Shown: positions 47-26,756 of the stretch, piece after piece
How positions within the stretch are numbered: position 1 is the stretch's first letter
How the letters are laid out: each line of letters starts with the position of its first letter
From: Candidatus Babelota bacterium
Lineage (GTDB): Bacteria; Babelota; Babeliae; Babelales; Vermiphilaceae
Assembly (NCBI GenBank): GCA_039809905.1
Contig: JBDHVY010000001.1
Span: forward strand, 420,001 to 452,000
Direction: 5' to 3'
DNA: 32,000 nt
The notes under the pieces: generated by a model
Seen by the model: only the letters and a program-made list of their open reading frames with translations
Told to the model about the DNA's origin: nothing
The model's database searches: none
Made by a program: the position numbers and the translations under genes

Positions 47-99
47 AGATAGAATTAAAGAACGAGGGGTCGGCGTGTGTAGAAAATCGAAACATGGGG
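47..99. repeat. Two degenerate units of the dispersed GC-rich hairpin repeat family
   Basis: atagaattaaagaacgagggg-tc-ggcgtgtgtagaaaatcgaaacatgggg aligns with 9781-9838 (aaagaatgaaggacgggg ... aaagaaaatcggaacgtgt) and with 26702-26730 on the opposite strand. It ends in the family flank ATGGGGTTAAAA. Confidence 0.5.
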
Positions 100-181
100 T
101 TAAAAATCTTGATTTGACCTTTTTTATTATGATATATTCAAGTTGAATTTGTAAAAAACAAGAAGTAAAAAAGGTATTACC

Positions 182-841
182 ATGAAGAAAAACTATAAAG
201 AAGCTCTGGCAGCATTTATTATTCTTTATAGCCTTATGGTACCAACATATCTAACTCCTAAAGGCGGCCGAGCACAAGTTGCTGCAGTTAGTGCAAAAAC
301 ACCACAACCTATTGTTCAAAAACCACGTAAAATAGAAAAACCATCAGAAGAAGAACAATCAGAACCAGAAATTATTTCCAATGCAAAACAAATCAAGGCT
401 TTTGTTCCTCAACCAGGAATATTTACGCGTATGTATTTGGGCTTCACTCCAATAATTTTGAGTAGTCTTAATACTGCAATTGGAGCAGGAATTGCTGCCG
501 CAACCAAAGTGGTTCTTGCTGGTTTTCTTGAAGCTCGCCAATATACACTCGCTAAAAAAGCTGCTCAGGAATATGCAAAAGATGAAATTCAAAAAGGTCT
601 TTTTAGTGGAGCACAATTCGCTCAATTTACTCCACAACAAAAAATAGATCTTGCAACAGAAACTATTTTAAAGTCAAACAAAATAAATATGGCTGAAATG
701 GATGCGAGTACATCATACTCTGCTCTTTTCAGCCAAGGACTTTATCCAGCTAAGCTCAACATAGGAGCTTCTCTGATCTCGGGATTTATAACAATGGGAG
801 TAGCTCTGCTGTTGCAAAGCTTAATGCCTCAATCTGAGTAA
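182..841 (+). CDS. Hypothetical secreted/membrane protein (219 aa)
   Basis: ATG with AAAGG 7 nt upstream. N-terminal hydrophobic signal-like segment (AAFIILYSLMV), Ala/Gly-rich hydrophobic core and C-terminal TM (GFITMGVALLLQSL). No family recognised. Confidence 0.6.
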   Translation: MKKNYKEALAAFIILYSLMVPTYLTPKGGRAQVAAVSAKTPQPIVQKPRKIEKPSEEEQSEPEIISNAKQIKAFVPQPGIFTRMYLGFTPIILSSLNTAIGAGIAAATKVVLAGFLEARQYTLAKKAAQEYAKDEIQKGLFSGAQFAQFTPQQKIDLATETILKSNKINMAEMDASTSYSALFSQGLYPAKLNIGASLISGFITMGVALLLQSLMPQSE

Positions 842-857
842 ATATATAATGGTTTTC

Positions 858-1217
858 TTATAACTCAGTATATTTTGTCCACTTACCCTTACTTTTTTCA
901 ATAGGGTATTTACGTGCTTTTTCAATTTGTTTATGCGCAAGAGCCTTGCTCAAATCAATCTTATTTTGATTACAAAAACACAAAAGCGCAAATGCAATAT
1001 CTGCTACTTCATCTTCAACATCTTGTCTACGTTTTTCTAATTCATCATATGAAGCTGCACTCTCGCACCATAAAAAAAGATCCATGAGTTCTGTGCTTTC
1101 TGAAACTAATGCCATACTCAAATTTTTCGGACTGTGAAATTGTTGCCATTCACGATCTTCAATAAACTTTTTAACATCCTTTTTTAAAGATTCTATTGTT
1201 GTTGTTACATCTGACAT
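858..1217 (-). CDS. MazG-like all-alpha nucleoside triphosphate pyrophosphohydrolase (119 aa)
   Basis: Pattern FIEDREWQQFHSPKNLSMAL..ESTELMDLF.W plus the acidic motif EDEVADIAF is typical of small MazG/dCTPase-type NTP-PPases. AAGGA RBS. Starts 9 nt after the stop of the upstream HEPN gene. Confidence 0.85.
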   Translation of the reverse strand: MSDVTTTIESLKKDVKKFIEDREWQQFHSPKNLSMALVSESTELMDLFLWCESAASYDELEKRRQDVEDEVADIAFALLCFCNQNKIDLSKALAHKQIEKARKYPIEKSKGKWTKYTEL

Positions 1218-1226
1218 GTAAAATCC

Positions 1227-1607
1227 TTATGCCAAAAATCTTATACGTTCTATTAATGCATTAAGCTCTCTAGAAAATGAATCAAATCCGGAAACAATTA
1301 CATCTACATTTTCTTGTTCATATGTATACGATGTTAGATGTCGTTTTTCTATAAAAGCAAACCACTCTTCTGGGTTATCAATCAATCGCGCAAGAGCAGC
1401 TTTTCGAAACACATCTCTAGGCGCGGTTGATTCTACACCTTGAGCAGTTAAAATGTGCTTCATTGTTTTCCATGATAATTCATAACAAACCTTAAAAGCC
1501 TGCACAGCCCCAGCCTTATCTCTATCAGTTATCATATCCTGGCGAAATCGCTCAAAAACTGATTGTGCTTTAAGTAAATTGCTAAAATCTGTCCCTAATT
1601 TTTCCAT
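1227..1607 (-). CDS. HI0074-family HEPN protein (nucleotidyltransferase substrate-binding type), no MNT partner adjacent
   Basis: 126 aa. AFKVCYELSWKTMKHIL..GVE..APRDVFRKA and KRHLTSYTYEQ match the family pattern FE.t.El.WK..K..L...G......pr.v.r.A and RN.tsHtYde. GAGGAA RBS. Confidence 0.85.
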   Translation of the reverse strand: MEKLGTDFSNLLKAQSVFERFRQDMITDRDKAGAVQAFKVCYELSWKTMKHILTAQGVESTAPRDVFRKAALARLIDNPEEWFAFIEKRHLTSYTYEQENVDVIVSGFDSFSRELNALIERIRFLA

Positions 1608-1635
1608 GCCCTATTCCTCGATGTTATGTATATTA

Positions 1636-2265
1636 TTATTCTTGTTGTTTATGATGTAAAAAATCTACGACAAATTGGCTCCAAGATTCCATGCATTCAC
1701 GTTGTGCGATACAATCTGCAAGCGAAACTAATGTACCACTTTTTAATTCTGATTTTATTGCAATATCAGCACTATCACCTTCAAGCAAAAATACAAATCC
1801 AATATGCACCTTGCCAACATCGTTGGAATCATCATTCAAAATGCCCAGAGGTTTTACATTCACTTTCCCTGCATAATCAACTTCTTCATGAAATTCACGC
1901 AATGCCCATGCAAAAAGCGAATCCTCTACCATATCTTCTTGCCGAATATGACCACCAATACCAAGTGTTAATTTATTGCGCAAACGAGCTTCTGAGGCAT
2001 CTGATTTTCGTTGCATCAAAAAATATTTATCATCATGAGTAAAAACAAGATAGGGAATAATTTGTTTATATCGAGGATCAACTTCCATCATTGAACGCGG
2101 TAAAAATTCTTTTTTATCATTAATTATGCTGACATAATGATCAAAATTGACTTCTTTTAATCCGTGCCATGCCTGTACATCATCAAAAAAATATTGCCTA
2201 GACATAACAAGAATAAGTTCATCCTGGATGTGCGCAGTGGGTTGTTGTGTATTCATTTGTGTCAT
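1636..2265 (-). CDS. Nudix-family hydrolase (COG4112/YmaB-like)
   Basis: 209 aa. Nudix-box-like GIGGHIRQE...REFHEEVDY, and an N-terminal segment EVDPRYKQIIPYLVF as in MutT-family predicted phosphoesterases. AAGGAAG RBS. Confidence 0.8.
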   Translation of the reverse strand: MTQMNTQQPTAHIQDELILVMSRQYFFDDVQAWHGLKEVNFDHYVSIINDKKEFLPRSMMEVDPRYKQIIPYLVFTHDDKYFLMQRKSDASEARLRNKLTLGIGGHIRQEDMVEDSLFAWALREFHEEVDYAGKVNVKPLGILNDDSNDVGKVHIGFVFLLEGDSADIAIKSELKSGTLVSLADCIAQRECMESWSQFVVDFLHHKQQE

Positions 2266-2367
2266 AAATTATCTTCCTTTTTCTAATGCAGCCATGGCAT
2301 GGCTTAAAATAATTTTCTTTATTTTTTATGCTTTCAGTATAAATCAGACACCCAGATTAGCAACCAA

Positions 2368-2397
2368 TTGACTTATACTTTTTTTGAGCCATACTAT
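2368..2397 (+). promoter_or_regulatory. Candidate sigma70-type promoter for the 2439 gene
   Basis: TTGACT (2368-2373), 18-nt spacer, TACTAT (2392-2397), about 40 nt upstream of the start codon. By-eye match only. Confidence 0.3.
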
Positions 2398-2438
2398 CAG
2401 CGTTGATTTGATGTACCATTTCACCCAAAAGGATGTTC

Positions 2439-2810
2439 ATGAAGAAAACGTTACTTACAGCAACTCTAGCAACTGCATTTTCAAGCATAAATTTTGCCAC
2501 TGAAACTCCACAAATAAACCATTTTGAAGAACTAACAAAATTAGTTGACCAATGCGAAAACAATCCTGCTGCACAGATGTGTCCAAAAATGGCAAAAGCT
2601 TGTCCTAAGCTCAAAGCAATGTTAGATGATGTAACAGAAAGATTAGAAAAAACTGGCGTGCCCGGATTTCTTGAAGAAGAAAAATCAAAAATTGAAAATT
2701 ATGTTGCCGCTACCTACCACAAACCAAAGCTGGATAATATCTTACCTGCAGAATTGCCAAACCTGTCTCAGATAATTAATTCTGTTTCTGCGCAACAAAA
2801 CCAAGAATAA
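2439..2810 (+). CDS. Small secreted Cys-motif protein (123 aa)
   Basis: The first ATG (2433) overlaps the AAGGA RBS, so ATG 2439 has correct spacing. Signal peptide MKKTLLTATLATAFSSINFA. Motif QCENNPAAQMC...CPKLKAML. Confidence 0.7.
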   Translation: MKKTLLTATLATAFSSINFATETPQINHFEELTKLVDQCENNPAAQMCPKMAKACPKLKAMLDDVTERLEKTGVPGFLEEEKSKIENYVAATYHKPKLDNILPAELPNLSQIINSVSAQQNQE

Positions 2811-2827
2811 AAAAACTCTTTTGGTAT

Positions 2828-2856
2828 AAAAAACCCTCTATTTGTAGAGGGTTTTT
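2828..2856 (+). terminator. Rho-independent terminator
   Basis: aaaaaa-ccctcta-tttg-tagaggg-ttttt, 18 nt after the stop codon. Confidence 0.8.
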
Positions 2857-2937
2857 GCATTATTGACTTATATTCATTTTGCAATATAATAATTAATGTA
2901 AATATGTTTATTAATTTTATACCAAAGGGACTGCATA

Positions 2938-3417: not shown

Positions 3418-3441
3418 CTTTTATACAAAATCAAATTAAAA

Positions 3442-3474
3442 AATAACCTCCACAATACTGGGGGTTATTTTTTG
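3442..3474 (+). terminator. Rho-independent terminator
   Basis: aataacctcc / gggggttatt 10-bp stem (one G-U), 8-nt loop, T6 run. Confidence 0.75.
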
Positions 3475-3583
3475 TCCATTTTTTTATACACATTCACAAT
3501 GCAATATGCTATGTATACAAAATATAATCTCATTCTCATATCAATACCCAATACACATTGAACTATAAAAAAAGGAGTCTCTT

Positions 3584-3976
3584 ATGATCATTAATGATAC
3601 CAAATTCAATTCCATTTGGACCATTTCAAAATATGTCTACGGCCTTGTTCCTGTGCTCATCGGCCTTGATAAATTTTCCTTTTTCATTGTTGATTGGAAT
3701 ATGTATGTCAGTCCTTTTGCAGCATCCATTGTTCCCATTACAACTCTTGTTCCTCTTGTTGGTATTATCGAAATTGCAGCAGGATTGCTGATTCTGACTA
3801 AATATCCTCGTTTTGGTGCCTATCTTGTTGCTGCGTGGATTGGGATTGTTATTATTAATCTATTCATGATTGGTGGCCTTTACGATATTATTTTGCGTGA
3901 TATTGCCATTGCATTTGGTTACATTGTATTTGCAATGCTGACTGAAGTTAAAGAATCTGCTCAGACATCAATATAG
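3584..3976 (+). CDS. Small integral membrane protein, 4 TM (DoxX-like topology)
   Basis: AAGGAG RBS. Four hydrophobic helices. GLDKF...W and GIIEIAAGLLIL are reminiscent of DoxX-like proteins, but this family call is tentative. Confidence 0.6.
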   Translation: MIINDTKFNSIWTISKYVYGLVPVLIGLDKFSFFIVDWNMYVSPFAASIVPITTLVPLVGIIEIAAGLLILTKYPRFGAYLVAAWIGIVIINLFMIGGLYDIILRDIAIAFGYIVFAMLTEVKESAQTSI

Positions 3977-5222
3977 CCAATTTTTGTTTAATAGCTTCGT
4001 TAAAAAGCGGTTGAGTAATTTTAGGTAAATTTTGAACACGATTTGAAAGGGATATTTCTTTTATATCTTCATGAGTAAGAGCATTATTAATCGCTTTAAA
4101 GCACAATGTTAAATAGTTACTTGTGTAAGGACAATGAACTTCATTACTTTTTATATCTACCTGCAATGCCCGACTACTTAATCTTTTTGAATGTGTTTGC
4201 GGTAAGGGAAAATAAGCTATCATGATAGATGAAAGCTCTGTAATATCCCACAGATATGCTCTATTATTTTTACTTGAACAGGTAGTCATTAAAAAAGGTA
4301 CGTGATCGATTTCATCAAGTAAATGATTCCAGGAAACAAAACAAACCGGTTTTTCATGTGGTAAAATTTTAGTGATATATGTTTGAGAATTAAGAAGAAT
4401 TATATCATTGCTACCGTTAGCAATCGCAAGCCATTTTCCATCAGCAGAATGATCTATATCCGTTACAATTCCATCATAAACATATGTATGATCATATTTT
4501 CCCGTTTTCCAATTCCATAACCGTATTGTTTTATCATCTGATACGGTTACAAGAAGATGTTTTACATTTTTTGCATTATGCTTAACTGTATAGGATAAAG
4601 CAAAACGAACAACATCCGTATGTTCTTTCAATACATGATAATATGTTTTTCCGTTTATCTTATAAAAATCATCACTCACTTTTTTTAAAATATATTTTTT
4701 TATGCTCGGTACTAAATCTTCAAATGAATGTTCTGCTGATAGAACTGTATCGAGAGTTTTTCCGTTAACATTCTCCAGATCCATAGCCTTTTGATACATA
4801 CAGCGATCAATTAAAAACTTAAAAAGAGCATTCCTTTTTGTTAAAGCCGCAAATATTTGAGGCTGATCTAACTGTTTAATTTTATCAGGAATTAAGGGAT
4901 ATAATTTATTGAGAGCTTTTATTGATTGTTTATAAGCAGCAATAGGCTCTTCTTGCTGTAATTTTTCAATGGAATAGAATGAAGAATCTTGTTTTACAAA
5001 TTCATCAATTCGTTGAGAAAGCTCCCGACAATTTTTTATAGACTTGATTGGTCTTAATAGTGTTTCTTGACTAGAACGAAAGCTTTTTAAGAGTTTATAA
5101 GTATCTTCGTCAGTAAATGGAGACTTATCTTCAATCAACGGCACCTCCGGAAAATCCATAGACGATAAAGAAAGAATACTAAAGCACAACAACACCATAA
5201 GCATTCTTATTGTTTTATCCAT
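3948..5222 (-). CDS. Secreted WD40-repeat protein (424 aa)
   Basis: AAGGG RBS. Signal peptide MLMVLLCFSILSLSS. C-terminal half has WD40 signatures (LLVTVSDDKTIRLWNWKTGK; DGKWLAIANGSNDIILLN; NNRAYLWDI). The 3' end overlaps the convergent 3584 gene by 29 nt. Confidence 0.75.
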   Translation of the reverse strand: MDKTIRMLMVLLCFSILSLSSMDFPEVPLIEDKSPFTDEDTYKLLKSFRSSQETLLRPIKSIKNCRELSQRIDEFVKQDSSFYSIEKLQQEEPIAAYKQSIKALNKLYPLIPDKIKQLDQPQIFAALTKRNALFKFLIDRCMYQKAMDLENVNGKTLDTVLSAEHSFEDLVPSIKKYILKKVSDDFYKINGKTYYHVLKEHTDVVRFALSYTVKHNAKNVKHLLVTVSDDKTIRLWNWKTGKYDHTYVYDGIVTDIDHSADGKWLAIANGSNDIILLNSQTYITKILPHEKPVCFVSWNHLLDEIDHVPFLMTTCSSKNNRAYLWDITELSSIMIAYFPLPQTHSKRLSSRALQVDIKSNEVHCPYTSNYLTLCFKAINNALTHEDIKEISLSNRVQNLPKITQPLFNEAIKQKLAILMSEQIL

Positions 5223-5275
5223 AAGCTAACCCTTTATAGCAAACTTAGTTAATGTTGGCACAAGTATCATCTCAA

Positions 5276-5303
5276 CCCCATGCGCAAAGCATTGAGCATG
5301 GGA
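5276..5303. repeat. Hairpin repeat unit (single)
   Basis: ccccatgc-gcaaagcattga-gcatggga. It is near-identical in architecture to 14997-15024. Confidence 0.7.
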
Positions 5304-5390
5304 TTATAAAAAATGTTTCTACTATTATAAAGAATAGCTTATAGATAAAACCAGGGAATGTTGATCAATTGAGCCTATTTTTTATCTCAA

Positions 5391-5687
5391 TTATCTTTTT
5401 CTAAAGGGTGATGGTGACCGTGAACTATGCTTGAAAGTTTTAAGCATTTTATTTTGTATGGCAATAACAGTTTCTCTATCTTTTCGGCTTCGTCTTTGAG
5501 AACGAGGAGCATCTGTTAGGGGCTTGAATATCGTGTGCTGCTCTTCAATAATAACGCGCTGTTGCTCTCGGCTTAATCTTTTTGTGTTTGGAGCATTGAA
5601 CATAGCAGGATCTCCGCCAGAACCTGCCATAAGAAATATATTTAAAAGAAGTGTAGCGATTGGCATCAAAATCATATTTTTCATCAT
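5391..5687 (-). CDS. Small secreted, highly basic protein (98 aa)
   Basis: AAGGA RBS. Signal peptide MILMPIATLLLNIFLMAGSGG. Arg/Lys/Ser-rich mature part (RSQRRSRKDR, SSRSPSPFRKR). Confidence 0.6.
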   Translation of the reverse strand: MMKNMILMPIATLLLNIFLMAGSGGDPAMFNAPNTKRLSREQQRVIIEEQHTIFKPLTDAPRSQRRSRKDRETVIAIQNKMLKTFKHSSRSPSPFRKR

Positions 5688-7198: not shown

Positions 7199-9655
7199 AT
7201 GAGTTACGATTTTGTATCAGTTGAAAAAAAATGGCGTAAAAGTTGGCATGATTCTTCAGCCAGGGTCCTCATGAGTAATAAAATGGATCATGAGGTTAAA
7301 AAATTCTACTGCCTTGATATGTTTCCTTATCCATCAGGAAGTGGATTACATGTGGGTCACTGGCGAGGGTATGTTCTTTCAGATGTTTATACACGCATCA
7401 AATGGCTTGAAGGTTATGATATCCTGCATCCTATGGGATGGGATGCTTTTGGTCTTCCAGCAGAAAATGATGCCATAAAAAAAGGTATTCATCCAAAAGT
7501 TGGAACCGCTACCAACATTGCCAATTTTAAAAAACAACTTCATGAAATTGGTGCTTTATATAATTGGGATAAGGAACTTGATACAACAGATCCTAACTAT
7601 TATAAATGGACTCAGTGGATTTTTTTACAAATGTTTAAAGCAGGTCTTGCGTATGAAGATATGGCCCCAATCAATTGGTGTCCTTCATGTCTCACAGGTC
7701 TTGCAAATGAAGAGGTTGTTGATGGCAAATGTGAACGCTGTGGATCAGAAGTTGTTCAACGAACCATCAGACAGTGGATTTTAAAAATTACCGCGTATGC
7801 TGAGAAACTTTTAAATGGCCTCGATAAACTTGAGTGGCCAGAAAAAGTTAAATTGATGCAACGCAATTGGATTGGAAAAAGTGAAGGTTTAATCTTTTCT
7901 TCTCCAGTAAAAGATTCTCATCTAGTACTTGAAACATTTTCAGCTCACTTTGAAGCATTCTGCGCCGATACCTTTTTAGTTATTGCCCCTGATCATGAGC
8001 TTTTACCATATCTTGTTGAAAAGGTATCAAATCGTGAAGAAATTTTGGCCTATGCTCAAGAACTCGTACATGAGCGTTTGCGAGATAAAGGGGCCGCAGG
8101 GCATGAACCCAAAGGCATCTTTACCGGTTGTTATACGATAGATCCTGTTGGCAATGGTGAATTGCCAATCTGGGTTGCAAGCTTTGCACTTGCCGATTAT
8201 GGAACTGGTATCATTAAATGTTCTGCACATGATGAACGCGATTTTGCATTTGCAAAAAAATACGGTATTAAGCTGAAAGCTGTTTTATTTCCTGAAGATC
8301 CAGCTCTACGTAAACAAGTAGAAAATTTTGATATTTGTTATACCGATATGAAGAAGGGTATCTTAGCAGAACCATCAATATTAGCAGGCAAAAAAGCTGG
8401 TGATGTACGTGGTGATATTGTTGAATACTGCGAAAGAAATAATCTCGCACGTCGCACAACCAATTATAAATTACGCGATTGGGTATTTTCTCGCCAACGT
8501 TATTGGGGCGAACCAATACCATTAATTCATTGCAAAAAATGTGGTATTGTTCCTGTTCCGGAAGATCAATTACCGGTGACACTACCAGAAATTGAACAAT
8601 ACGAACCAACAGGCACCGGTGAATCGCCACTTGCGGCAATTCATGAATGGGTGCATGTTGCATGCCCACAATGCAATGGACCAGCAGAGCGAGAAACTAA
8701 TACCATGCCTCAATGGGCTGGATCATGTTGGTATTTCCTGCGCTATCCAAATCCACATTTAAAAGATAAACCTTGGGATCCTGCTGATATGAATTATTGG
8801 ATGCCAGTAGATTTATATGTTGGTGGAGTTGAGCATGCAATTTTACATTTACTCTATGCACGTTTTTGGGTAAAAGTATTATATGATTTGGGACATTTAC
8901 CATTTGATGAACCATTTAATCATCTTTTTAATCAAGGAATGGTATTAAAATATTCAGAAAAATCAGGCCTTGTTGAAAAAATGTCTAAATCAAAAGGTAA
9001 TGTTGTTAGCCCTGATGATATGGTTGCAAAATATGGTTCTGATGTATTGCGCATGTATATTCTTTTCATGGGGCCACCAGAACTTGATTGTGAATGGCAA
9101 GATAGTGGTATTGAAGGTGTTAAACGCTTTGCAAACCGCGTGTATGATTACTTAACAAAACCGGCCACAATATTGCCGCAAGGCGAACAAGAAGATATTT
9201 CTGTTACACGCCGTACCCATAAATTGCTGCAAGATTTTCAAGAACGCATTGATTTATTTAAGCCAAATACAGCGCTTTCTGCATTTATGGAATGGATCAA
9301 TGATGCAACTGCCGCTTCAATGAAATTGAGCAAAGATTCTGCAGAAAAAATAATTATCGTACTTTCTGTTATGGCTCCGCACATGGCAAGTGAACTGCTT
9401 GAGCAGTTGTTTAGCAAACAATTGCAAGATTGTTCTTGGTCGTATGCAAATCCAGAATATACGTATGAAGATCACGTAGAAATAATTATTCAGGTGAATG
9501 GCAAACATCGTAGTAGCGTTACCGTTAAACGTAAAGCTGATCAAGATGTTGTTGAACCATTAGCACAACAAGCTATTGCACAATGGCTTGAAGGCAAAGA
9601 AATAATCAAAGTAGTTTTTGTAAAAGATCGTTTGATTAATTTTGTTGTAAGATAA
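7199..9655 (+). CDS. leuS: Leucine--tRNA ligase
   Basis: 818 aa. HIGH-type motif (GLHVGH), KMSKS motif (KMSKSKGN), CxxC zinc pairs (CPSC..CERC, CKKC..CPQC) and overall bacterial LeuRS layout. AAGGA RBS. Confidence 0.97.
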
Positions 9656-9662: not shown

Positions 9663-9697
9663 GAAGGCGTGTTTATCATGGCACGCCCTTTTTTTAT
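9663..9697 (+). terminator. Rho-independent terminator of leuS
   Basis: aaggcgtg / cacgccctt stem followed by T7, starting 8 nt after the stop codon. Confidence 0.75.
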
Positions 9698-9838
9698 CCC
9701 CAGCTCCGTTTCTCTACGCTGTGGTCATCGATAGCCCAGTATCTATCCCCAATTCCGCTTCTCTTCATTGGGGTCCCCGTACAAAGAATGAAGGACGGGG
9801 TAAAAGTAATGGGTAATAAAGAAAATCGGAACGTGTAA
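9698..9838. repeat. Cluster of four hairpin repeat units
   Basis: Units at 9698-9724 ccccagctccgtttctctacgctgtgg; 9747-9773 ccccaattccgcttctcttcattgggg; 9775-9800 ccccgtacaaagaatgaaggacgggg (opposite loop polarity); and 9812-9838, a degenerate unit similar to 71-99. Confidence 0.8.
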
Positions 9839-11377: not shown

Positions 11378-12988
11378 CTAAAACAGCTCATTCACTAACT
11401 GATCAATCTGCTGCGCAGTAACTTCATCTGCCATACATGCATAAAATTTTTCATCATATTCACGCGTTTGAACAACGACCGGCATTGTTACTGCATGTCC
11501 CAATAATAATGCCTGTTTTTTTGTATCCAATGAAGCTAAAATTGACCGCAATGCTGTTGCGCCATTTACACCAGTTAGCACTGCCTGAATATCTTTTTCA
11601 TCATTTAATTGCGCAACAATCTTGGTACCAATTTGAGAAATTATTTCTTGATCAATCCCTGAAGGTCGCTGATCTACCACAAGCAATGAAACATAATATT
11701 TACGCATTTCTCGTGCAATAACGCCAAAAATCGTTTGGCGTGCAGCTTGTGGATTTAAGAATTTATGCGCTTCTTCGATAGTAATCAATAATTTTTTTGG
11801 TTCATCTTCTTTGCGTTGTGATCCCAAAAACTTTTCAGTTTTAGCAACATATTCTGTATGAATACGACGTGAAATAATATTGGCAATAAGCAGATAAACA
11901 AAGGTAGAAGTATAATTACCAAATTCAACAATAACGCTGATTCCTTTATCAATAAATTCCATCATTTGATCAATGACAGGTACATGTGCACCTTGGTGCA
12001 ATGGTTTAAAAAACGGTAAACGCTCAATGCGCTTTAATTTTCTATATAAGGCAGCAATTGATTCTGGATGTGCTCCAATTGATTGGGCAAATTCTTTTAA
12101 ATTCTCACCCTGATTTAATAGCACATACAACCAATCCTGCTTGTATTGGGCAACAATTAAATAGGCAGCTTCGATCGCCGTTGAATGTAAATTCAATTCA
12201 TCTTGTAGTGAAAGTAAATCTTCTACTTGAATGGAATTATATGCAAGAACAATCTCTACATCAGGCGATCCACCTCGCCTACGCGTAGAATCAGGATCTA
12301 AAGAAAATATAGCAACTCGATGAGGAAATAATGTTTTAAGCCCTTTAACAAATGATTGATGTTCTGATTCTTTACGTGCTTGCAAACCGTATTCACTGTG
12401 CATATCAAAAATTAAATTAATTGCTTTATCATTTTTGATAAGTCCTGCAAGAACAAGACGGGTGATAAATGTTTTTCCTGTTCCTGTTTTACCAAAAATA
12501 CCATTACTTCGCTCGGTTAATCTTTCCAAATCAATACACACAGGAGTATTCATATCAAGAGGACATCCAATACTAAAATATTTTTTACTTGGATGAATTT
12601 CATCACCAAAAATTAATGCTACATCTTTTTTATCTGCATCGTATACATACGTAAAATGAGCGGGAATCGTTTTGACCGGAGATGGCTTATTATCTTTGGT
12701 AAGCATCAGCATTGGTTTAAGAACTGCTGTTGCATAGATATCTTTTTGTTTCAACAATGCAGTAAGCAAAGTTTCCTCCGGAGTAGGAGGAAACAATAAA
12801 ATATCAGGATGAGTAACTTCAAGCGCAAGATCTGTAATGAGAGAAAAAAATGTATGTGTCTTACCCACAATCGAAACAAATTTTCCCGTTTTTATTTCTT
12901 CCAATGCAATATCAGGAGAAATACGGATAACAAGACCTTCGGTAAGTGAACCGGATACTATGTGACCAAGAATGCGCTTTAGCCCCAT
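11378..12988 (-). CDS. HerA-like (DUF87) P-loop ATPase
   Basis: 536 aa. Walker A GKTGTGKT, Walker B LLITIEEAHKF and an N-terminal barrel-like region (GHIVSGSLTEGLVIRI...GKFVSI). The start ATGGGG is preceded by GGGGTAAAAAC. Confidence 0.8.
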   Translation of the reverse strand: MGLKRILGHIVSGSLTEGLVIRISPDIALEEIKTGKFVSIVGKTHTFFSLITDLALEVTHPDILLFPPTPEETLLTALLKQKDIYATAVLKPMLMLTKDNKPSPVKTIPAHFTYVYDADKKDVALIFGDEIHPSKKYFSIGCPLDMNTPVCIDLERLTERSNGIFGKTGTGKTFITRLVLAGLIKNDKAINLIFDMHSEYGLQARKESEHQSFVKGLKTLFPHRVAIFSLDPDSTRRRGGSPDVEIVLAYNSIQVEDLLSLQDELNLHSTAIEAAYLIVAQYKQDWLYVLLNQGENLKEFAQSIGAHPESIAALYRKLKRIERLPFFKPLHQGAHVPVIDQMMEFIDKGISVIVEFGNYTSTFVYLLIANIISRRIHTEYVAKTEKFLGSQRKEDEPKKLLITIEEAHKFLNPQAARQTIFGVIAREMRKYYVSLLVVDQRPSGIDQEIISQIGTKIVAQLNDEKDIQAVLTGVNGATALRSILASLDTKKQALLLGHAVTMPVVVQTREYDEKFYACMADEVTAQQIDQLVNELF

Positions 12989-12995
12989 GTTTTTA

Positions 12996-13046
12996 CCCCA
13001 GCTTCGTTGCTCTTTGCTGGGGACCCCAATAGAATAAAACCAAATT
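12996..13046. repeat. Hairpin repeat dimer (one intact unit, one decayed)
   Basis: ccccagcttcgttgctctttgctgggg (12996-13022) followed by accccaatagaataaaaccaaattc. Lies between atpC and the herA-like start. Confidence 0.8.
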
Positions 13047-13360: not shown

Positions 13361-14869
<1,509 letters not shown>

Positions 14870-14910
14870 TTAACCTAAACCATGTACGTTTCTTTGTAAA
14901 GAAAGAGCCA

Positions 14911-14947
14911 TAAAAAAAGATCCTGCATATAGAGCAAGACCTTTTTT
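14911..14947 (-). terminator. Rho-independent terminator after the 15030-15485 gene
   Basis: On the minus strand: aaggtcttgc-tctatat-gcaggatctt followed by T7. The two G-U pairs become mismatches on the plus strand, so it is minus-strand specific. Confidence 0.55.
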
Positions 14948-14990
14948 GTCTTTTTTTGTAATATTAGCAAAAATCATTTAAATCTTTTAT

Positions 14991-15024
14991 GGGGTTACCC
15001 ATGCGAAAAGCACTGAGCATGGGG
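14991..15024. repeat. Hairpin repeat unit with decayed partner
   Basis: ggggtt-acccatgc-gaaaagcactga-gcatgggg, directly after the stop of the 15030 gene. Confidence 0.75.
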
Positions 15025-15029
15025 TATAA

Positions 15030-15485
15030 TTATTGAGCTTCACGCAATCCCTTAAGAAATCTATCATTTGTAGCATTACGCGCAATACCTTTAGTTAAAC
15101 TCATCAGACGACTCAAATACCATTCATCATCACGACTGGCTTCTCTTTTATCATAGTTTCTCACGTGCTGGACAAGCACTAACCATCCTTTTTTCTTGCT
15201 CATTTCGCTCGGTTCAAGTTCTGATAAAATTAATGGCCATATGTTAGTTTTAAAGCCATCAATTAATTTTTGAATATCACCCTCAGGAGCAGAAGTACTC
15301 ACTAATATATCATAAACGTCGATACTAGATGCTATCGCTTGCATGAGTTTGTCAAAATCTTCACGCAAAGCTTTTTTACGATACCCACGCTCTTCCTGCG
15401 GTAACTTTGTTCTGTGCGAACCATAACTTTCCTGCGCACCAAATAAGCAACAGAACACACTAGCCATTACAATAAATCTTTTCAT
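15030..15485 (-). CDS. Hypothetical secreted protein (151 aa)
   Basis: Signal peptide MKRFIVMASVFCCLFGAQESYG. G-rich RBS (AAAGGGGG) 7 nt upstream of the ATG. Confidence 0.6.
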   Translation of the reverse strand: MKRFIVMASVFCCLFGAQESYGSHRTKLPQEERGYRKKALREDFDKLMQAIASSIDVYDILVSTSAPEGDIQKLIDGFKTNIWPLILSELEPSEMSKKKGWLVLVQHVRNYDKREASRDDEWYLSRLMSLTKGIARNATNDRFLKGLREAQ

Positions 15486-16313: not shown

Positions 16314-16500
16314 AGCAACCCCCTAAAAATTACTTATTGAATTCTAAGTAAAACTATAATTTACAATATTTGTTATTTATAATACATCAGGTGGCTGGCA
16401 AGCGCAAAAGCCCCCATTAAATGGAGATATCTGTTAAAATTGTGCTTGAAACTGAAATAAGATAAGCTTGAGCGCAAGGAAATGATTAGCAATAAAAATC

Positions 16501-16544
16501 CTATTACTACGGGATCCCCATTCGATATACAATGGAAAATGGGG
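16501..16544. repeat. Hairpin repeat (decayed unit plus intact unit) in the pgi leader
   Basis: ctattactacggga-t-ccccatt-cgatatacaatggaa-aatgggg. The left flank matches cattctattacgggatcccc found upstream of the MCE gene. Confidence 0.7.
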
Positions 16545-16561
16545 TTGAAAAAAAGGAAAAA

Positions 16562-21253: not shown

Positions 21254-21290
21254 CAAAAACATATAAACAATTAAATAAATTCAATAAAAA

Positions 21291-22281: not shown

Positions 22282-22384
22282 ACCCTTATTATTAGTCATT
22301 TTTATAAAATTTATTTATTTTCAGATGTAATTTTTTATATAATGAGCATGAGAAACTAACTCTCATTAAAAATTATAAGGTTTT

Positions 22385-24631: not shown

Positions 24632-24637
24632 GATTTA

Positions 24638-24958
24638 TTAATCTTTTAAAGAATGCGTATGTTTGCTGCCATCAGATAAATCAATATGCAAAACTTCTTT
24701 TTCGTCCAAACGCATATTGCGTACAGGCTTGCCATAGTTAAGCAAGGCAGTTTTTTCTCGACAGGAATCATATACAAAGATTGGATACATAACCTGAAGC
24801 TTCGGTACAGATATTGTGCGTTTACCATAATAATTCGCAGAGACATCTTTGTTAAATTTAACGGAAAAAGGTTTGCTAGCATCTTCACTCGCATTCAACA
24901 AAAAACTTACACAACAGCTAACTATCGTTAATATTTTAACTCTATTTCTTAAAAACAT
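24638..24958 (-). CDS. Small putative lipoprotein (106 aa) downstream of the MCE gene
   Basis: AAAGGGGGG RBS 4 nt upstream of the ATG. Signal sequence with lipobox-like LTIVSC. Confidence 0.55.
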   Translation of the reverse strand: MFLRNRVKILTIVSCCVSFLLNASEDASKPFSVKFNKDVSANYYGKRTISVPKLQVMYPIFVYDSCREKTALLNYGKPVRNMRLDEKEVLHIDLSDGSKHTHSLKD

Positions 24959-24994
24959 TTTTCCCCCCTTTGATTATTTATATAGCAATCATTT

Positions 24995-26707
24995 TTATGT
25001 TTTCATCAAACCACTTGCACCCGATAAACTACCAAGAACATATTTCACGTCTTCATCACCAAATCGCATGCCAAGTCCGACAAATATATTAGCATTCTGT
25101 TTACTCACAAAATCATCCGCACCGAAGGTGAAATAAATATTGCGCATTACATACATTCTATTAAGCCACTTAAGGTGTGGACGTTTATCTTGATGGAATT
25201 TAGTTGGTCCTCTGCGATTAAAGCCACGGAAATCAAATCCTTCAAACGTTGTTACCCAACGGAATTTATCATTTTTGAATGGAAACTCATAATCAGCGCC
25301 AAGACCTGCAAACCCATCCATTAATCCAATACGTAATGCAACATCTCCAAATATTTTACCAAATTGCAACCCAATACGTATGCCATTGCGATCAAACCAT
25401 AATTTTTGCTGACGATAAACTGGTTTTAATTTTTCTTCTGATACTAATGTATTTTCATAAAAATTATCCGATAATAATTGTGGCCGAGCATCTGCAGCTG
25501 CTGGTGGATTAAATTGTTTTGCTGGATCAATGAAATCAAGATTATCATTGGTATAGACATATTCTTTATCTCTACGATATGCAAAACCTTTTTCAGAACT
25601 GGTTATTTGTATTAAATAAAAATGTTCTTCATTCGGGTGAACTCGAATATCAAAATATCCTTTTGAATCTTCATAGCGATAATTTTCCGCCGGACGGTGC
25701 ATCGTTTCAAAATGCGTATCAAATAAAATTTGCAAACGATCAAGTTTGCTTACATAATTTTTAAAGCCCGATACGGCAACTTTAAGATCTCTATAGGTTT
25801 CATCTTCATTAACGAGTTTACCCAGTAGACCTTTTCCTTCATCAATTTTTTCTGCAACAGAACTAACACTACGCAATCCATCACGTGCTTGTGCAGCCGC
25901 TTCTTCAAGTGCGTCAGTTGTTACTTCAACTCTTCCTGCTATGCGTCCAAAATCACGATCAAAGACATTTGATATTTTTTCGATACTTTCTTGAAACGAA
26001 GGAAACACATTATTTTCTAAACGATCAGCGAGCATACGTACATTTGTACCAATTTCTAAAAATGCATCAATATTTTCTTCATTACGAACAAACGAACGCT
26101 CAATAACATTTGTTACGGTAGAAAATTTTTCTGCGGCATTATCAAGATTAGTGATAAATGATTTGAGCTGGTCAACTCCTTGCGGTCCTGCTAATGCTTC
26201 TTTAACCGATTCACTTACTTCACGTACATTTCCAGCAATTTCTCTAAATTCACGCAATAAATCATCAAGATCAACAGGATCCATTGTTGATTTTTGCAGA
26301 GCTTCACCTTCACTGAGCGTACGCAATAATGAATCACCCGGAACTAAATCTATGTATTTTGGCCCTAAAAGACCATCTTGACGAACAATAGCACATGCAT
26401 TTTGATATAAAGGATATTCAGCTGAAACCATTGCTATGGCTTCCGCTTTTGCTTCAGTTTTTGAATCGGAACTAGAAAGAAGCGTTATTTCTTCTACCCA
26501 ACCAACTTTTACTCCAGCAATTTTTACCGCAGCTTTACGCGATAATCCTGAAATATCATGGAAATATAATACGTATTTTGTATATTGTGCGCGATCAAAA
26601 CGAAATGCTCCAATTTTAAAGCCCATATAACCAAAAACGGCAAGTGCTATTAAAACAAAGATTCCAACACGCGTCTCTATTTTACCTTGCAAACTAATAT
26701 TCCCCAT
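24995..26707 (-). CDS. MCE/MlaD-domain protein, long form (570 aa)
   Basis: N-terminal TM VGIFVLIALAVFGYMGF, then an MCE domain (YVLYFHDISGLSRKAAVKIAGVKVGWVEEI...VRQDGLLGPKYIDLVPG), an approximately 250-aa helical region and a Gly/aromatic-rich C-terminal domain. Confidence 0.85.
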   Translation of the reverse strand: MGNISLQGKIETRVGIFVLIALAVFGYMGFKIGAFRFDRAQYTKYVLYFHDISGLSRKAAVKIAGVKVGWVEEITLLSSSDSKTEAKAEAIAMVSAEYPLYQNACAIVRQDGLLGPKYIDLVPGDSLLRTLSEGEALQKSTMDPVDLDDLLREFREIAGNVREVSESVKEALAGPQGVDQLKSFITNLDNAAEKFSTVTNVIERSFVRNEENIDAFLEIGTNVRMLADRLENNVFPSFQESIEKISNVFDRDFGRIAGRVEVTTDALEEAAAQARDGLRSVSSVAEKIDEGKGLLGKLVNEDETYRDLKVAVSGFKNYVSKLDRLQILFDTHFETMHRPAENYRYEDSKGYFDIRVHPNEEHFYLIQITSSEKGFAYRRDKEYVYTNDNLDFIDPAKQFNPPAAADARPQLLSDNFYENTLVSEEKLKPVYRQQKLWFDRNGIRIGLQFGKIFGDVALRIGLMDGFAGLGADYEFPFKNDKFRWVTTFEGFDFRGFNRRGPTKFHQDKRPHLKWLNRMYVMRNIYFTFGADDFVSKQNANIFVGLGMRFGDEDVKYVLGSLSGASGLMKT

Positions 26708-26756
26708 GTTTCATTTCATTCCACACGGGGATCCCGTAATAGAATGAGAAACTGTT
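26702..26756. repeat. Hairpin repeat dimer overlapping the MCE start codon
   Basis: ccccatgtttcatttcattccacacgggg (26702-26730) followed by at-cccgtaatagaatgagaaactg (decayed). The first 6 nt are the complement of the ATGGGG start of the MCE gene. Confidence 0.75.

Follow-up and report, generated by a model that had tools for sequence, protein, structure and literature searches.

A lineage-specific family of GC-clamped hairpin repeats in a Dependentiae (Babeliales) genome, with features of a non-autonomous mobile element

Hairpin repeats in the window

The stretch of DNA analysed here (the window) is 32 kb of a Dependentiae (Babeliales) genome, and lying between and within its genes are copies of an undescribed GC-clamped hairpin repeat family of ~50 bases per copy (Table 1). 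We denote as R the strand on which the loop is purine-rich, and as Y the opposite strand. An element consists of a T-rich TTTAA flank, a hairpin of the form CCCC-A-(2-3 covarying bp)-(13-15 nt loop)-T-GGGG, a single base, and an inverted partner unit that is either complete or 5'-truncated. Read along the R strand, the layout is 5'-[partner, complete or 5'-truncated, ...TCTTaann-GGGG]-T-[CCCC-A-(2-3 covarying bp)-GRAAYRnARTGnAR loop-T-GGGG]-(T)TAAAA-3'. Most copies are followed by a conserved half-unit, A-CCCC-R-nnn-AAGA..., and the shared flanks noted in a preliminary description of this DNA are real, its attctatt-GGGG being this half-unit and its GGGG-T-TAAAA the T/A-rich flank.

Table 1. 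Copies and fragments of the hairpin repeat in the window. R1 is the covariance model built from the hairpin units; the window was scanned with filters off.
Feature	Coordinates	Strand	R1 match or other evidence
Decayed copy	52..107	-	59-107(-), 13.2 bits, E 0.088
CCCATGCTCAaTGCTTTgCGCATGGG-subfamily unit, hairpin 5276-5303	5258..5311	-	13.7 bits, E 0.056
In-frame leuS copy, codons 18-35, R orientation in leuS	7249..7303	-	59.9 bits, E 7e-20
Decayed unit CCCCAGCTCCGTTTCTCTACGCTGTGG	9690..9724	+	Not detected by R1; 22/27 identical to unit 12996-13022
Full two-unit dimer, the only one in the window	9739..9808	.	9739-9791(+), 27.0 bits; 9757-9808(-), 28.2 bits
Trailing fragment taatgggtaataaagaaaatcggaacgtg, no more than a partial right arm (ATGGG)	9809..9838	+	No R1 match; weak evidence
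Composite copy	12983..13040	+	33.7 bits, E 9e-10
Unit 14997-15024 with half-unit 14979-14996	14979..15032	-	27.5 bits
Unit 16516-16544 with half-unit 16498-16515	16498..16552	-	58.9 bits, E 2e-19
Unit 26702-26730 with half-unit 26731-26748	26694..26748	+	52.7 bits, E 4e-17

The eight units previously given as intact are all correct in position and sequence; one of them (9698-9724) proves to be a decayed relative of the 12996 unit. Copies are indeed present at the loci listed, and the one lying in frame within leuS had been missed. Of three supposed head-to-head dimers, that at 9747-9800 stands as a full dimer and the other two are a unit with a truncated partner: what had been taken for decayed second units at 13024-13046 and 26733-26756 is the conserved half-unit, and 9812-9838, also called a decayed unit, is a partial arm only.

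The first copy in the window was rightly called decayed (as 47-99). On the strand given it reads TTTTAA-CCCCATGTTTCG...CACACGCCG-A-CCCCTCGTTC (Y orientation), and its right arm is mutated (GCCG), so that it no longer folds (0 to -4 kcal/mol, not better than shuffles); it has CCCCATGTTTC and CACAC in common with the 26702 unit. The unit at 5258..5311 lacks a half-unit and sits between two minus-strand genes, 88 nt past the 5391-5687 stop codon and 53 nt ahead of the start codon of a WD40 gene (3948-5222). Its perfect stem (-18.5 kcal/mol, z = -4.1) belongs to a unit that matches unit 14997 at 23/26 positions and differs hardly at all from 7641-7668 of the Babeliales locus L081. In the full dimer, a unit with a pyrimidine loop on the plus strand (9747-9773) is followed by T, an inverted unit (9775-9800) and TAAAAG; because their arms are unlike (CCCCAAT and CCCCGT), the two units fold separately, and the MFE structure consists of two separate hairpins. 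At the place in the L081 dimer equivalent to the trailing fragment, the sequence is GGGGTAAAAGCATGGGGC.

The composite copy comprises a partial arm CCCCATGTTTTTA (12983-12995), unit 12996-13022 and a half-unit ACCCCAATAGAATAAAAC (13023-13040). The copy at 14979..15032, which folds on both strands, lies upstream of a conserved atpD promoter block, and that at 16498..16552 lies 18 nt before the likely start codon of pgi (16563), in a divergent region where the pgi transcript would carry it in R orientation. The last copy lies between two minus-strand genes. Stem position 5 of its unit is A.C on the plus strand and G.U on the minus, and the minus (R) strand is predicted to fold at -14.4 kcal/mol, the plus strand at -9.0 kcal/mol.

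The position of some units might suggest that they are unusual intrinsic terminators or attenuators working without a U-tract. GC-clamped hairpins with predicted energies of -9 to -18 kcal/mol across units are often found downstream of stop codons (5 nt after the 15030 stop of gene 15030-15485, as well as after the 5391 stop). However, neither strand carries a T-run, as the preliminary description correctly observed, and a 13-15 nt loop is atypical for terminators. Units are also present ahead of start codons, within ORFs and between divergent genes. Moreover, canonical hairpin-plus-T-run terminators adjoin units: the leuS terminator found by scan (9666-9697), whose T-run is directly followed by the 9690..9724 unit, and another at ~14905-14945, downstream of the 14979..15032 copy. 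That copy is absent from the equivalent L081 region, and in loci L083 and L086 only hairpin-plus-T-run terminators are present there, upstream of atpD. Because such terminators adjoin them, we agree that the units are not classical terminators and regard a terminator role as very improbable.

The repeats form a real and abundant family

Since the window holds merely 27 CCCC and 24 GGGG sites in its 32 kb, the events are few, and the rare C- and G-runs of an AT-rich genome might be thought to pair by accident. The dinucleotide-shuffle test fails to reproduce the hairpins: five perfect CCC...GGG hairpins with stems of at least 7 bp were observed, compared with a mean of 0.05 and a maximum of 1 in 300 dinucleotide-preserving shuffles, and CCCC-N15-25-GGGG occurs five times against 0.30. 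R1 gave seven strong matches in the window (starting at 7249, 9739, 9757, 12988, 14979, 16498 and 26694; 27-60 bits, E 4e-7 to 7e-20) and two borderline ones (5265 and 59). A scan for more copies found them in relatives and metagenomes, with 26 matches at E<0.01 across 158 kb of Babeliales DNA and 152 additional matches in metagenomes, where 66 of the loci are contigs with 30-41% GC; the low-GC contigs account for more than 100 added copies. Across 80 unrelated genomes (1.51 Mb) there were zero matches at E<1. The shuffles, the conserved flanks and loop, the specificity of the model and the hundreds of related copies elsewhere together refute a chance or compositional artefact, to which we assign practically no probability; the repeats are a real, abundant and lineage-specific family. 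Unit density is 0.3-0.5 per kb in the clade of the window, falling to 0.04 per kb among more distant relatives, per-genome copy numbers being extrapolated from partial sequence and not from complete genomes.

Matches to R1 are concentrated outside genes, with 85% falling in the non-coding 15% of the sequence. The neighbouring genes show the baseline mix of divergent, convergent and co-directional spacers, and unit orientation in the window has no bias relative to GC skew (5 vs 5). Relative to transcription there is a mild excess of the R orientation (39 vs 24, p = 0.08). Unit arrays and tandem duplications were observed, as were units flanking tmRNA, SRP RNA and tRNA genes.

The stem varies while the purine-rich loop GRAAYRnARTGnAR is conserved, and the compensatory changes in the arms that had been named as a check are present. 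Stem cells are paired in 92-95%, compared with 27-61% in slid controls, and those changed on both sides number 28 against 7.7 in shuffles, or 125 against 40 in a larger set (0/500 shuffles reach either). Among 81 units oriented by flank only, wobble is confined to one strand: A.C-type mismatches, read as G.T on the R strand, number 14 and those of the opposite kind 0 (p = 1.2e-4). This asymmetry is independent of the direction of the host gene. A second repeat family was found inserted within the loop of a unit.

Copies within genes and at gene starts

Most surviving units lie between genes, but some persist in frame where they encode surface loops of essential proteins, and others sit at gene starts and donate start codons. 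In-frame copies are present in four genes (leuS in the window, gpmI, mnmE and a Fic gene), each unit contributing about 45-55 nt (15-20 codons). The leuS and gpmI copies are not pure insertions, since each stands in place of a segment of comparable length (+3 and +9-10 codons). Orthologous intact leuS copies occur at 10051-10105 of L081 and 8656-8710 of L084; the copy is absent from the LeuS of L082, L083, L086 and ~100 other Babeliales, which read ...HPIAKTKPAGSGKK.... At gene starts, the partial arm at 12983-12995 supplies, on its minus strand, the ATG and first codons (MGLK) of a HerA-like gene (11378-12988), whose product begins MGLK(R/K)... in the window and L084 and MKKI(L)... in L083, L085 and L086. 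Similarly, the first ATG of an MlaD-domain ORF (26705-26707, minus strand) lies within an arm of the 26702 unit (CATGGGG).

The genic copies also bear on whether the repeats are maintained. In the leuS copy (-10.6 kcal/mol) the clamp has changed compensatorily from CCCC/GGGG to CCTC/GAGG, and the orthologous gpmI copy of L233 likewise has a compensatory clamp change, the gpmI changes being synonymous. Between the gpmI orthologues of L123 and L232, which have 76% protein identity, the unit is identical at 40/40 nt, compared with differences at 7/54 positions in the flanking codons (p ~0.005). The two clamp changes, the gpmI identity and the conserved loop provide some evidence of maintenance rather than junk, although they would also fit host function or gene conversion.

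Accordingly, one may ask whether the units are host-functional RNA or DNA hairpins, recruited as cis-elements and kept by selection with dispersal secondary, which could act as mRNA 5' or 3' stabilisers, processing sites or binding sites of a loop-specific protein. The conserved loop with its covarying stem, the one-strand wobble, the evidence of maintenance in leuS and gpmI, the units flanking RNA genes and the mild R excess would all be consistent with such a role. Against it, units occur in either orientation relative to genes and in spacer types at baseline proportions, the wobble asymmetry is not tied to transcription direction, and in-frame copies lie within leuS, gpmI and mnmE. Density differs more than 10-fold between close relatives, orthologous spacers vary in presence or absence, several orthologous copies have decayed, and arrays and tandem duplications occur. 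We therefore consider host function unlikely as the primary explanation.

Probable mobility of the element

Among close relatives, units occupy non-orthologous sites. Compared with relatives having 90-91% LeuS identity, presence or absence differs upstream of pgi, atpD and an NTase_sub_bind gene; the 16498..16552 unit, for example, is absent upstream of pgi in both L081 and L085. The sequence of the 9747 dimer is found at 8245-8314 of L081, upstream of leuS and so on the opposite side of that gene from the window, and the dimer CCCCAATTTCCACTCCGTTCCAATCGGGG-T-CCCCATCGAAAGAAACTGAAGATGGGG occurs at no fewer than eight loci with unrelated flanks. Orthologous copies have also decayed, as seen at window 47-99 and at L084 13142-13209, a partly decayed ortholog of the 12983..13040 copy. 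No clean pair of empty and filled sites was found among the compared relatives.

Neither terminal inverted repeats in the units nor target-site duplications at any of at least eight insertion sites were found. A T-T-T-A/T-A motif is conserved at positions -5 to -1 of units, and the 3' junction lies at ancestral A-runs in leuS, herA and gpmI. Truncation of the partner is always on the R-strand 5' side, leaving fragments of 16-21 nt in leuS and gpmI, compared with complete partners in full dimers.

We think it probable that the units are a lineage-specific, non-autonomous mobile (selfish) palindromic element, REP/BIME- and RPE-like, copied via a strand-specific single-stranded intermediate. Mobility is supported by the presence/absence differences, the dimer recurring at unrelated loci and the density range of 0.04 to 0.5 per kb, and selfish behaviour by the non-coding bias, baseline gene orientations, in-frame copies and decayed orthologous copies. 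The R strand, in single-stranded form, would be the source of new copies, with a trans-acting enzyme presumably recognising the GC clamp, stem geometry and conserved loop. The most likely candidate would be an HUH-type nuclease (a Y1 RAYT/IS200-like or rolling-circle enzyme) placing the copy beside TTTAA-like or A-run sequences, a reading suggested by the missing inverted repeats and target-site duplications, the T-T-T-A/T-A motif, the A-run junctions, the conserved loop with variable stem and the repeat inserted in a loop. Effects on the host (new protein loops, new N-termini, mRNA hairpins) would then be by-products of selfish mobility.

The truncation pattern raises a different possibility, that of a retro-mobile element: a reverse transcriptase primed from nicked T-runs (target-primed) would copy an R-strand RNA that has hairpin-UUAAAA at its end. 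By analogy with SINE/LINE 3'-stem-loop recognition, this predicts 5'-truncated copies ending at A-runs. Truncation on the R-strand 5' side, the 3' end always abutting an ancestral A-run, tolerance of G.U on the R strand and a conserved loop in the 3' stem-loop would all fit. However, target-site duplications are missing, the A-rich tail is short with a fixed TTA/TA prefix rather than a variable poly-A, and ~520 kb of Babeliales loci showed no reverse transcriptase, a weak check with precomputed Pfam annotations covering L081-L086 only. We know of no bacterial precedent for an element of this kind, and rate it as quite improbable.

For the favoured single-stranded route, the preliminary description proposed a search for a RAYT/IS200-like transposase, and an IS200/IS605 transposase family is multicopy in Babeliales. 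IS200/IS605 and Y1 (HUH) transposases, including RAYTs, share with the units strand-specific, hairpin-guided movement, no inverted repeats or target-site duplications, and insertion beside a short specific motif. The sole HUH gene found on a unit-bearing contig encodes an IS200/IS605 TnpA (L219; Pfam Y1_Tnp, E 4e-41), 1.3 kb from the nearest unit. However, the family is unlinked to units: the 20 kb around seven copies of L219-type TnpA contain zero units, the IS copies have no adjoining unit, and their end hairpins (GGCTT-TTTA-AAGCC and GGGGGCTTTTAAGCCCCC) are unrelated to ours. No mobilising enzyme was identified for the units; no RAYT was found, and none of the Y1 genes seen was flanked by units.

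Relation to known repeat systems

Rolling-circle HUH elements (IS91/ISCR, Helitrons) have one fixed end, marked by a subterminal hairpin, and another that varies, and they lack target-site duplications and inverted repeats; they are kilobases long and encode Rep/helicase proteins. By description the units may resemble them, although no Rep/helicase gene was seen. Classical MITEs (Correia, ERIC, RUP, Nezha and others) are likewise small, non-autonomous and dispersed, sometimes with in-frame fusions or altered expression, but have terminal inverted repeats derived from DDE transposons and target-site duplications, neither of which is present here.

The impression of an unrecognised dispersed family resembling REP/BIME, MITE or RPE elements is supported. 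REP/BIME/REPIN sequences are palindromic repeats carrying GTAG and CGTC tags (Di Nocera et al. 2013, PMC3733652; Bertels and Rainey 2011, PMC3116915). Like them, the units are short GC-clamped hairpins of high copy number, mostly extragenic and occasionally intragenic, which occur singly, clustered or as inverted dimers with different arms (cf. the Y and Z REPs of BIMEs); both comprise lineage-specific families with very different copy numbers between relatives and subfamilies with compensatory stem variation, and lack inverted repeats and target-site duplications. Unlike them, the units have no characteristic tag (GTAG in 2/93, CGTC in 1/93), no RAYT that we could find, a conserved 13-15 nt loop where most REP loops are 2-5 nt, and an asymmetric structure with the truncated partner on a fixed side, and their AT-rich Dependentiae host belongs to a phylum outside those surveyed for REPs.

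Rickettsia palindromic elements (RPEs; Ogata et al. 2000) are known to us as summarised in PMC10969869 and PMC3733652. They have no sequence similarity to the units and come from a different phylum; RPE-4 and RPE-6 have a CGTC tag (PMC3733652), absent here, and RPE-1-type elements, as far as these summaries go, are longer (about 100-150 bp). RPEs, like the units, have no known mobilising enzyme. They too are palindromic repeats of an obligate intracellular bacterium, both intergenic and genic, and their in-frame copies in unrelated housekeeping genes give the products extra hydrophilic peptide loops, a likeness made apt by the leuS, gpmI, mnmE and Fic copies.

A family of GC-clamped hairpins in Babeliales

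All eight CCCC...GGGG hairpin units listed as intact in a preliminary description of the window were present where it had placed them, at frequencies beyond chance: the window (34% GC) contains 5 perfect CCC...GGG hairpins with a stem of at least 7 bp, compared with a mean of 0.05 (maximum 1) in 300 dinucleotide-preserving shuffles, and 5 occurrences of CCCC-N15-25-GGGG, compared with 0.30 in shuffles. On folding, each intact unit formed the hairpin predicted for it, whichever strand was used, with energies from -9 to -18 kcal/mol, and the two units of the full dimer in the window (see table) formed separate hairpins.

The gene content of the window is consistent with Babeliales (WD40 proteins, a HepT/MNT-like pair, a MazG-like protein, an MlaD-domain protein, a T2SS/T4P-like cluster, ATP synthase and pgi). 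Its LeuS shares 91% identity with proteins from large metagenomic contigs, and remoter LeuS matches bear the names Candidatus Babeliales or Dependentiae. Dependentiae (TM6), mostly known through metagenomes, are widespread and live as obligate parasites of protists. We compared the window with the leuS neighbourhoods of six relatives (LeuS identity: L081, 91%; L084, 90%; L082, 86%; L083, 83%; L086, 80%; L085, 77%), in which similar hairpins recur, frequently at other places; a dimer downstream of leuS in the window has a near-identical counterpart in L081 that lies upstream of leuS. The window gave no tRNA in a tRNA search and no match to Rfam 15 at the gathering score, and across seven unit-rich or look-alike loci Rfam 15 matched tmRNA, tRNA and SRP RNA only.

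Alignment of 22 copies in one orientation gave the consensus TTTTTTAA-CCCCAT..(pyrimidine-rich loop)..ATGGGG-A-CCCCnnTnAAGAAT, which amounts to a unit followed by a single base and then the start of a second, inverted unit. A covariance model of 55 positions (R1), built on eight units whose hairpins measure 29 nt, matched 26 times in 158 kb of Babeliales sequence (E<0.01) and, at E<1, nowhere in 1.51 Mb from 80 unrelated genomes, these being the returns of an ATP synthase beta search at 60-65% identity. With filters off, R1 found 7 strong and 2 borderline matches in the window.

The two arms of the stem covary. In an alignment of 30 sequences (A5), 92.4% of cells were paired, with 28 both-side changes compared with 7.7 in shuffles; in one of 115 distinct sequences (A6), the figures were 95.4% and 125 compared with 40. 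None of 500 shuffles reached the observed value in either case. Because both alignments were fitted to the model, they are biased towards the structure, but a model-free scan and controls with slid registers, in which pairing fell to 27-50% (A5) and 37-61% (A6), are independent of that fit. RNAalifold predicted no structure from a plain MAFFT alignment of the units because arms of unequal length were misaligned, a problem solved by the equal-length units of the covariance model.

A pattern scan of metagenomes (GGGGTCCCCAN{17,21}TGGGGN{0,1}TAAA) matched at least 120 loci. Among the matches listed, 66 loci were low-GC (30-41%) contigs bearing the family signature, some of them other stretches of the 444-kb contig that supplied L081, and R1 matched 152 times on the metagenome loci listed.

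Anatomy and strand asymmetry

We profiled 93 non-redundant copies, oriented with the pyrimidine-rich loop strand (Y) uppermost, and set the ends of the element by the decay of the consensus and by comparison of coding flanks. The hairpin is 25-30 nt long, most commonly 29 or 27, with a 7-bp stem. Upstream lie T at -5 to -3 (81-87%), A or T at -2 and A at -1, the motif TTT(A/T)A standing at 58-87% per position; downstream are A at +1 (81%) and CCCC at +2 to +5 (90-95%), and the flank stays purine-rich up to about +17, past which it is background. Full inverted dimers make up about 15% of copies and were found at at least 8 metagenome loci in addition to those tabulated, while most of the other copies have a partner that is truncated, and the side on which it lies never changes. 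On the opposite, purine-rich loop strand (R), the 29-nt units have the consensus CCCC-A-nnn-G-R-A-A-Y-R-n-A-R-T-G-n-A-R-nn-T-GGGG; positions of the 13-15 nt loop are 84-94% conserved, and stem positions 6-8 are free to vary.

One subfamily, the dimer CCCCAATTTCCACTCCGTTCCAATCGGGG-T-CCCCATCGAAAGAAACTGAAGATGGGG-TTAAA, was aligned in twelve copies together with 75 nt of sequence to the left and 45 nt to the right, and showed neither terminal inverted repeats (TIRs) nor target-site duplications (TSDs); at least 8 of the twelve copies have unrelated flanks. Some copies of the CCCCAATTTCCACTCCGTTCCAATCGGGG-T-CCCCATCGAAAGAAACTGAAGATGGGG dimer sit within an outer GCGCTCG...CGAGCGC inverted repeat.

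Imperfect pairs in the stem reveal which strand matters. When 81 unique units were oriented solely by the GGGGACCC flank, leaving the stem out of the decision, stem positions 5-7 held 208 Watson-Crick pairs and 14 A.C-type mismatches, which on the R strand are G.T or G.U; G.T-type mismatches on the Y strand were absent (14 versus 0, p = 1.2e-4). Since wobble is confined to the R strand irrespective of how the host gene reads the unit, R is the single strand on which structure matters. Wobble pairs that tracked host transcription would have pointed to an RNA function, but they do not track it (12/52 versus 10/33, p = 0.46); the asymmetry is independent of whether the host gene reads R or Y, and host transcription is therefore not its explanation.

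Placement among genes and transcription signals

Of 149 R1 matches, 127 (85%) are intergenic, though open reading frames span 85% of the 521 kb examined (crude longest-ORF calls). Co-directional, divergent and convergent neighbours occur in the same mix as the baseline, and units lie about as far from stop codons as from start codons. Their density per kb is 0.28-0.50 in the window, L081 and L084, 0.18 in L086 and 0.04 in L082, L083 and L085, copy numbers per genome being extrapolated from partial loci. This spread of more than 10-fold among close relatives means that comparative genomics could reveal the responsible enzyme.

The view that units are not classical terminators is borne out, and we reject them as intrinsic terminators: no U-tract directly follows the hairpin, the right flank being A-CCCC and the T-rich left flank lying upstream, the loop is long (13-15 nt), and canonical terminators adjoin the units. 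The leuS terminator, for example, is directly followed by a decayed unit, and the unit at 14997 has a stop codon on one side and a canonical terminator on the other; L083 and L086 have canonical terminators only at the equivalent spot. Simple terminator and promoter scans gave the same counts as shuffles. R-oriented units as Shine-Dalgarno/start-codon modules (GGGGTAAAAACATG) were likewise rejected, as the L084 case is a unit-unit junction with no gene start and unit-to-start-codon distances are broad.

Positions of the features discussed
Feature	Locus	Position
Decaying copy, folding lost	window	47-99
In-frame copy near the 5' end of leuS	window	7249-7303
LeuS hot-spot segment	window	7250-7300
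leuS terminator (hairpin and T-run)	window	9666-9697
Full inverted dimer	window	9747-9800
Full inverted dimer	L081	8253-8306
Full inverted dimer	L086	9390-9443
Conserved block upstream of atpD	window	14831-14900
Conserved motif upstream of pgi	window	16400-16425
atpD and herA, called split/frameshifted	L082	17913-19242
Unit within atpD N-terminal fragment	L082	18993-19043
Unit with palindromic insert in its loop	L084	7207-7292
IS200-type TnpA	L219	342-734(-)
tmRNA gene	L122	5723-6097
Triplicated segment, tRNA gene and units	L164	247-516, 472-567, 717-805
Second repeat family	L085	10034-10084
Second repeat family	L086	17350-18170, 9915-9929
Second repeat family	L219	1-240
Second repeat family	L177	10345-10474
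Second repeat family	L233	gpmI
Second repeat family, proteins	P0005, P0012, P0016, P0034, P0242, P0250-P0253, P0261, P0263	
Third repeat family	L083	18480-18660
Third repeat family	L219	2180-2400

Copies within coding sequences

Some units lie within genes. An in-frame copy lies near the 5' end of leuS in the window, L081 and L084; some 100 further LeuS proteins from Babeliales read ...NPVAKTKPTGSGKK... at this point instead. Further in-frame copies, all read as R, occur in gpmI (L123), mnmE (L118) and a Fic gene (L139), and an 818-aa ORF of L208 contains a full dimer, again read as R. In GpmI the unit-derived LSTSQ(P/L)GSPSKGTEDGVKK replaces the ancestral KQDGPYETWE across a clade of at least 9 protein clusters. 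The unit-derived segments of in-frame copies are absent from homologues and from relatives in the PDB. Units also supply starts: HerA begins MGLK(R/K)... in the window and L084, with its ATG from the unit arm, and MKKI(L)... in L083, L085 and L086, and the first ATG of the MlaD ORF lies inside a unit arm.

In the coding copies the 3' junction is always GGG-GTT-AAA-AAA, running into an ancestral A-run, and a fragment of the partner, 16-21 nt long, makes up the 5' side. One-sided truncation and A-run junctions would suit copying of the units from an RNA template, which could be how they spread.

Several copies appear to have been kept intact. In the leuS copy of the window the clamp has changed from CCCC/GGGG to CCTC/GAGG, and in the gpmI copy of L233 to CTCC/GGAG, both of the latter changes being synonymous; pairing is restored in each. 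The gpmI units of L123 and L232 are identical at 40/40 nt, whereas flanking codons differ at 7/54 positions (p ~0.005). Other copies are decaying, namely the herA-proximal copy of L084 and the first copy in the table. Maintenance could come from selection on the hairpin, gene conversion between copies or templated repair within the palindrome. A function of the units for the host is possible and would be in keeping with the conserved loop and compensatory changes.

The LeuS segment that follows EKKWxKxW (residues ~18-35; ~120 homologues) is a hot spot, in which at least four different repeat-derived peptides have been substituted in different Babeliales lineages. Such peptides could mislead alignments of LeuS as a marker protein, and more generally the repeats put spurious-looking insertions into the phylogeny markers LeuS, GpmI and MnmE.

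Comparison with known elements and candidate mobilisers

Two super-families of REP elements are defined by their GTAG and CGTC tags (PMC3733652). The units resemble REPs (20-40 bp) in being short GC-rich stem-loops in many dispersed, mostly extragenic copies, and BIMEs and REPINs in their frequent inverted dimers or clusters, but the tag is absent: within 8 nt of the hairpin end GTAG occurs in 2/93 copies and CGTC in 1/93, and the consensus of the two flanks reads TTTAA and A-CCCC instead. Like Rickettsia palindromic elements (RPEs), they insert in frame into unrelated conserved genes (leuS in three orthologues, gpmI, mnmE, Fic and the 818-aa ORF), but RPEs are ~100-150 bp long with a Rickettsia host, and the units are ~45-55 nt long with a Babeliales host. 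DDE-derived MITEs have TIRs and TSDs, and the 12 copies have neither. Membership thus fails on the tag for the REP super-families, on size and host for RPEs, and on TIRs and TSDs for MITEs. The observations are consistent with a mobile, non-autonomous palindromic element that behaves as REP/BIME and RPE elements do.

Because TIRs and TSDs are missing, the flank motif is short and fixed, the hairpin is strand-specific and the loop is recognisable, we infer that the units may be mobilised as single strands by an HUH-type enzyme. Judged from sequence, the signatures that they share with IS200/IS605-type HUH elements are one-strand wobble, lack of TIRs and TSDs, and a fixed short motif beside the unit. 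We searched the 551 ORFs of 521 kb of Babeliales loci by phmmer with approximate sequences of IS608 TnpA and E. coli RAYT. These queries gave one match, an IS200-type TnpA in L219 (Pfam Y1_Tnp, E 4e-41) that is not flanked by units, and no unit-flanked RAYT in these loci. Close homologues of the TnpA number more than 1,400; many bear the names Babeliales or Dependentiae, and most sit on contigs shorter than 3 kb, in line with a multicopy IS. The element itself is ~620 bp long, TATTTAAYTGAGCAG ... TGTTTTTTAC (L219, L225-L231), with ends defined from five insertion sites and end hairpins, CTCTGGCTTTTTAAAGCCGGAG and GGGGGCTTTTAAGCCCCC, unlike the units. We reject this TnpA as the mobiliser of the units, given that the hairpins at the IS ends are unrelated to them and that the 20 kb around seven IS copies held none; an HUH enzyme family occurs in Babeliales, yet without a link to the units. 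L231 carries four other transposase fragments besides its IS200/IS605 copy.

On the most far-reaching reading, the units might constitute a new super-family of strand-specific hairpins (CCCC/GGGG clamp, conserved purine-rich loop of 13-15 nt, TTTAA flank), copied from the R strand, maintained after insertion and donating loops and start codons, although we consider it rather improbable that this holds in full. The R strand would be copied by a type of enzyme new to REP-like repeats, perhaps on RNA templates, which would be the source of 5'-truncated copies ending at A-runs; once inserted, copies would be kept up actively, through selection or hairpin gene conversion, and would renewably furnish the proteins of a reduced intracellular parasite with surface loops and start codons.

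Intragenic REPs, inverted dimers and RPEs are already well known in other bacteria. Our full-text literature search returned nothing linking Dependentiae with REP, REPIN, RPE or MITE elements, and one Dependentiae genome paper mentions ankyrin repeats as its only repeats; the units would be the first REP/RPE-like system for Dependentiae. Rickettsia is known for elements that colonise essential genes in frame, and such colonisation has arisen anew in an unrelated intracellular lineage. With its conserved loop, covarying stem and one-strand wobble, the family is apt for mechanistic work.

Other repeats, look-alike hairpins and conserved blocks

A second GC-rich Babeliales repeat family, unrelated to the units, has a core like CCTTCGACAAGCTCAGGATGAGCG / CTTCGCCAAGGCTACGGCGGACAAG and yields in-frame peptides such as LRQAQDER, FDKLRMNG, SFAKASADK and SPRLRRTG. 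In other lineages it fills the same N-terminal loop of LeuS and the same loop of GpmI, and in L233 it is inserted within the loop of a hairpin unit. The loop of one unit of L084 is likewise interrupted, by a palindrome of 30 nt (TCTACTTCGCATAAAGCTTCGTAGAATAAACCG), and the two cases suggest that unit loops are preferred targets of other small elements. A third family is a long intergenic palindrome, ACCCTTCGATACATTCTAYTACG...CGTAGAACACTCAGGGYGAGCGG, present on two different contigs. Assemblies of Babeliales genomes are probably fragmented by the units and by the GC-rich families that reside alongside them.

Non-Babeliales matches of the metagenome pattern were rejected as family members, being GC-rich hairpins whose flanks the pattern itself dictates. 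Other organisms have multi-copy GC-clamped hairpins of their own (L182, L186, L142, L184 and L196, 45-51% GC; L107, L146 and L190, human gut, 46-47% GC), in which GGGG(T/A) precedes the hairpin; examples are GAGGGGCTTTTTACCCCACAAAAACAAAGTTTTTGTGGGGACCCCGTATTCGCC with CCCCTTCCCCTTnnnnAAGGGGAAGGGG, and CCCCACAAGATACTGTGTACTTGTGGGG, found 6-8 times per 10 kb. Among IMG/VR contigs (L087-L104; 4.4-6.5 kb and larger), fifteen viral contigs have TTTTACCCCACTAAATCTGCGATTTAGCGGGGACCCCAAATAAAACC in common, a 12-bp hairpin with one A.C mismatch and no Rfam match, which lies at the junction of two ORFs in L099; several of the contigs are only 4-6 kb long, the size of Microviridae genomes. Its flanks are those of the Babeliales units but its hairpin design is different, and the likeness is probably a coincidence of the search pattern between unrelated hairpins.

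Units also lie beside RNA genes. In L164 an 89-bp segment consisting of one hairpin unit and the 3' part of an SRP RNA gene is tandemly triplicated next to a tRNA gene that itself has units on either side, and in L122 three units flank the tmRNA gene. The split atpD and herA of L082 could be assembly errors or real pseudogenes. Upstream of atpD in the window, a block reading TCTTTACAAAG..ACATGGTTTAGGTTAAAT..TTTAACAnTATTTTATGCACAAGGTGCA is strongly conserved in L081, L083, L085 and L086, well above other intergenic DNA, and probably serves the atpDC operon as promoter and leader; the motif GCGCAAAgGCCCCCATTAAAT upstream of pgi is kept in L081, L085 and L086 (77-91% LeuS identity).
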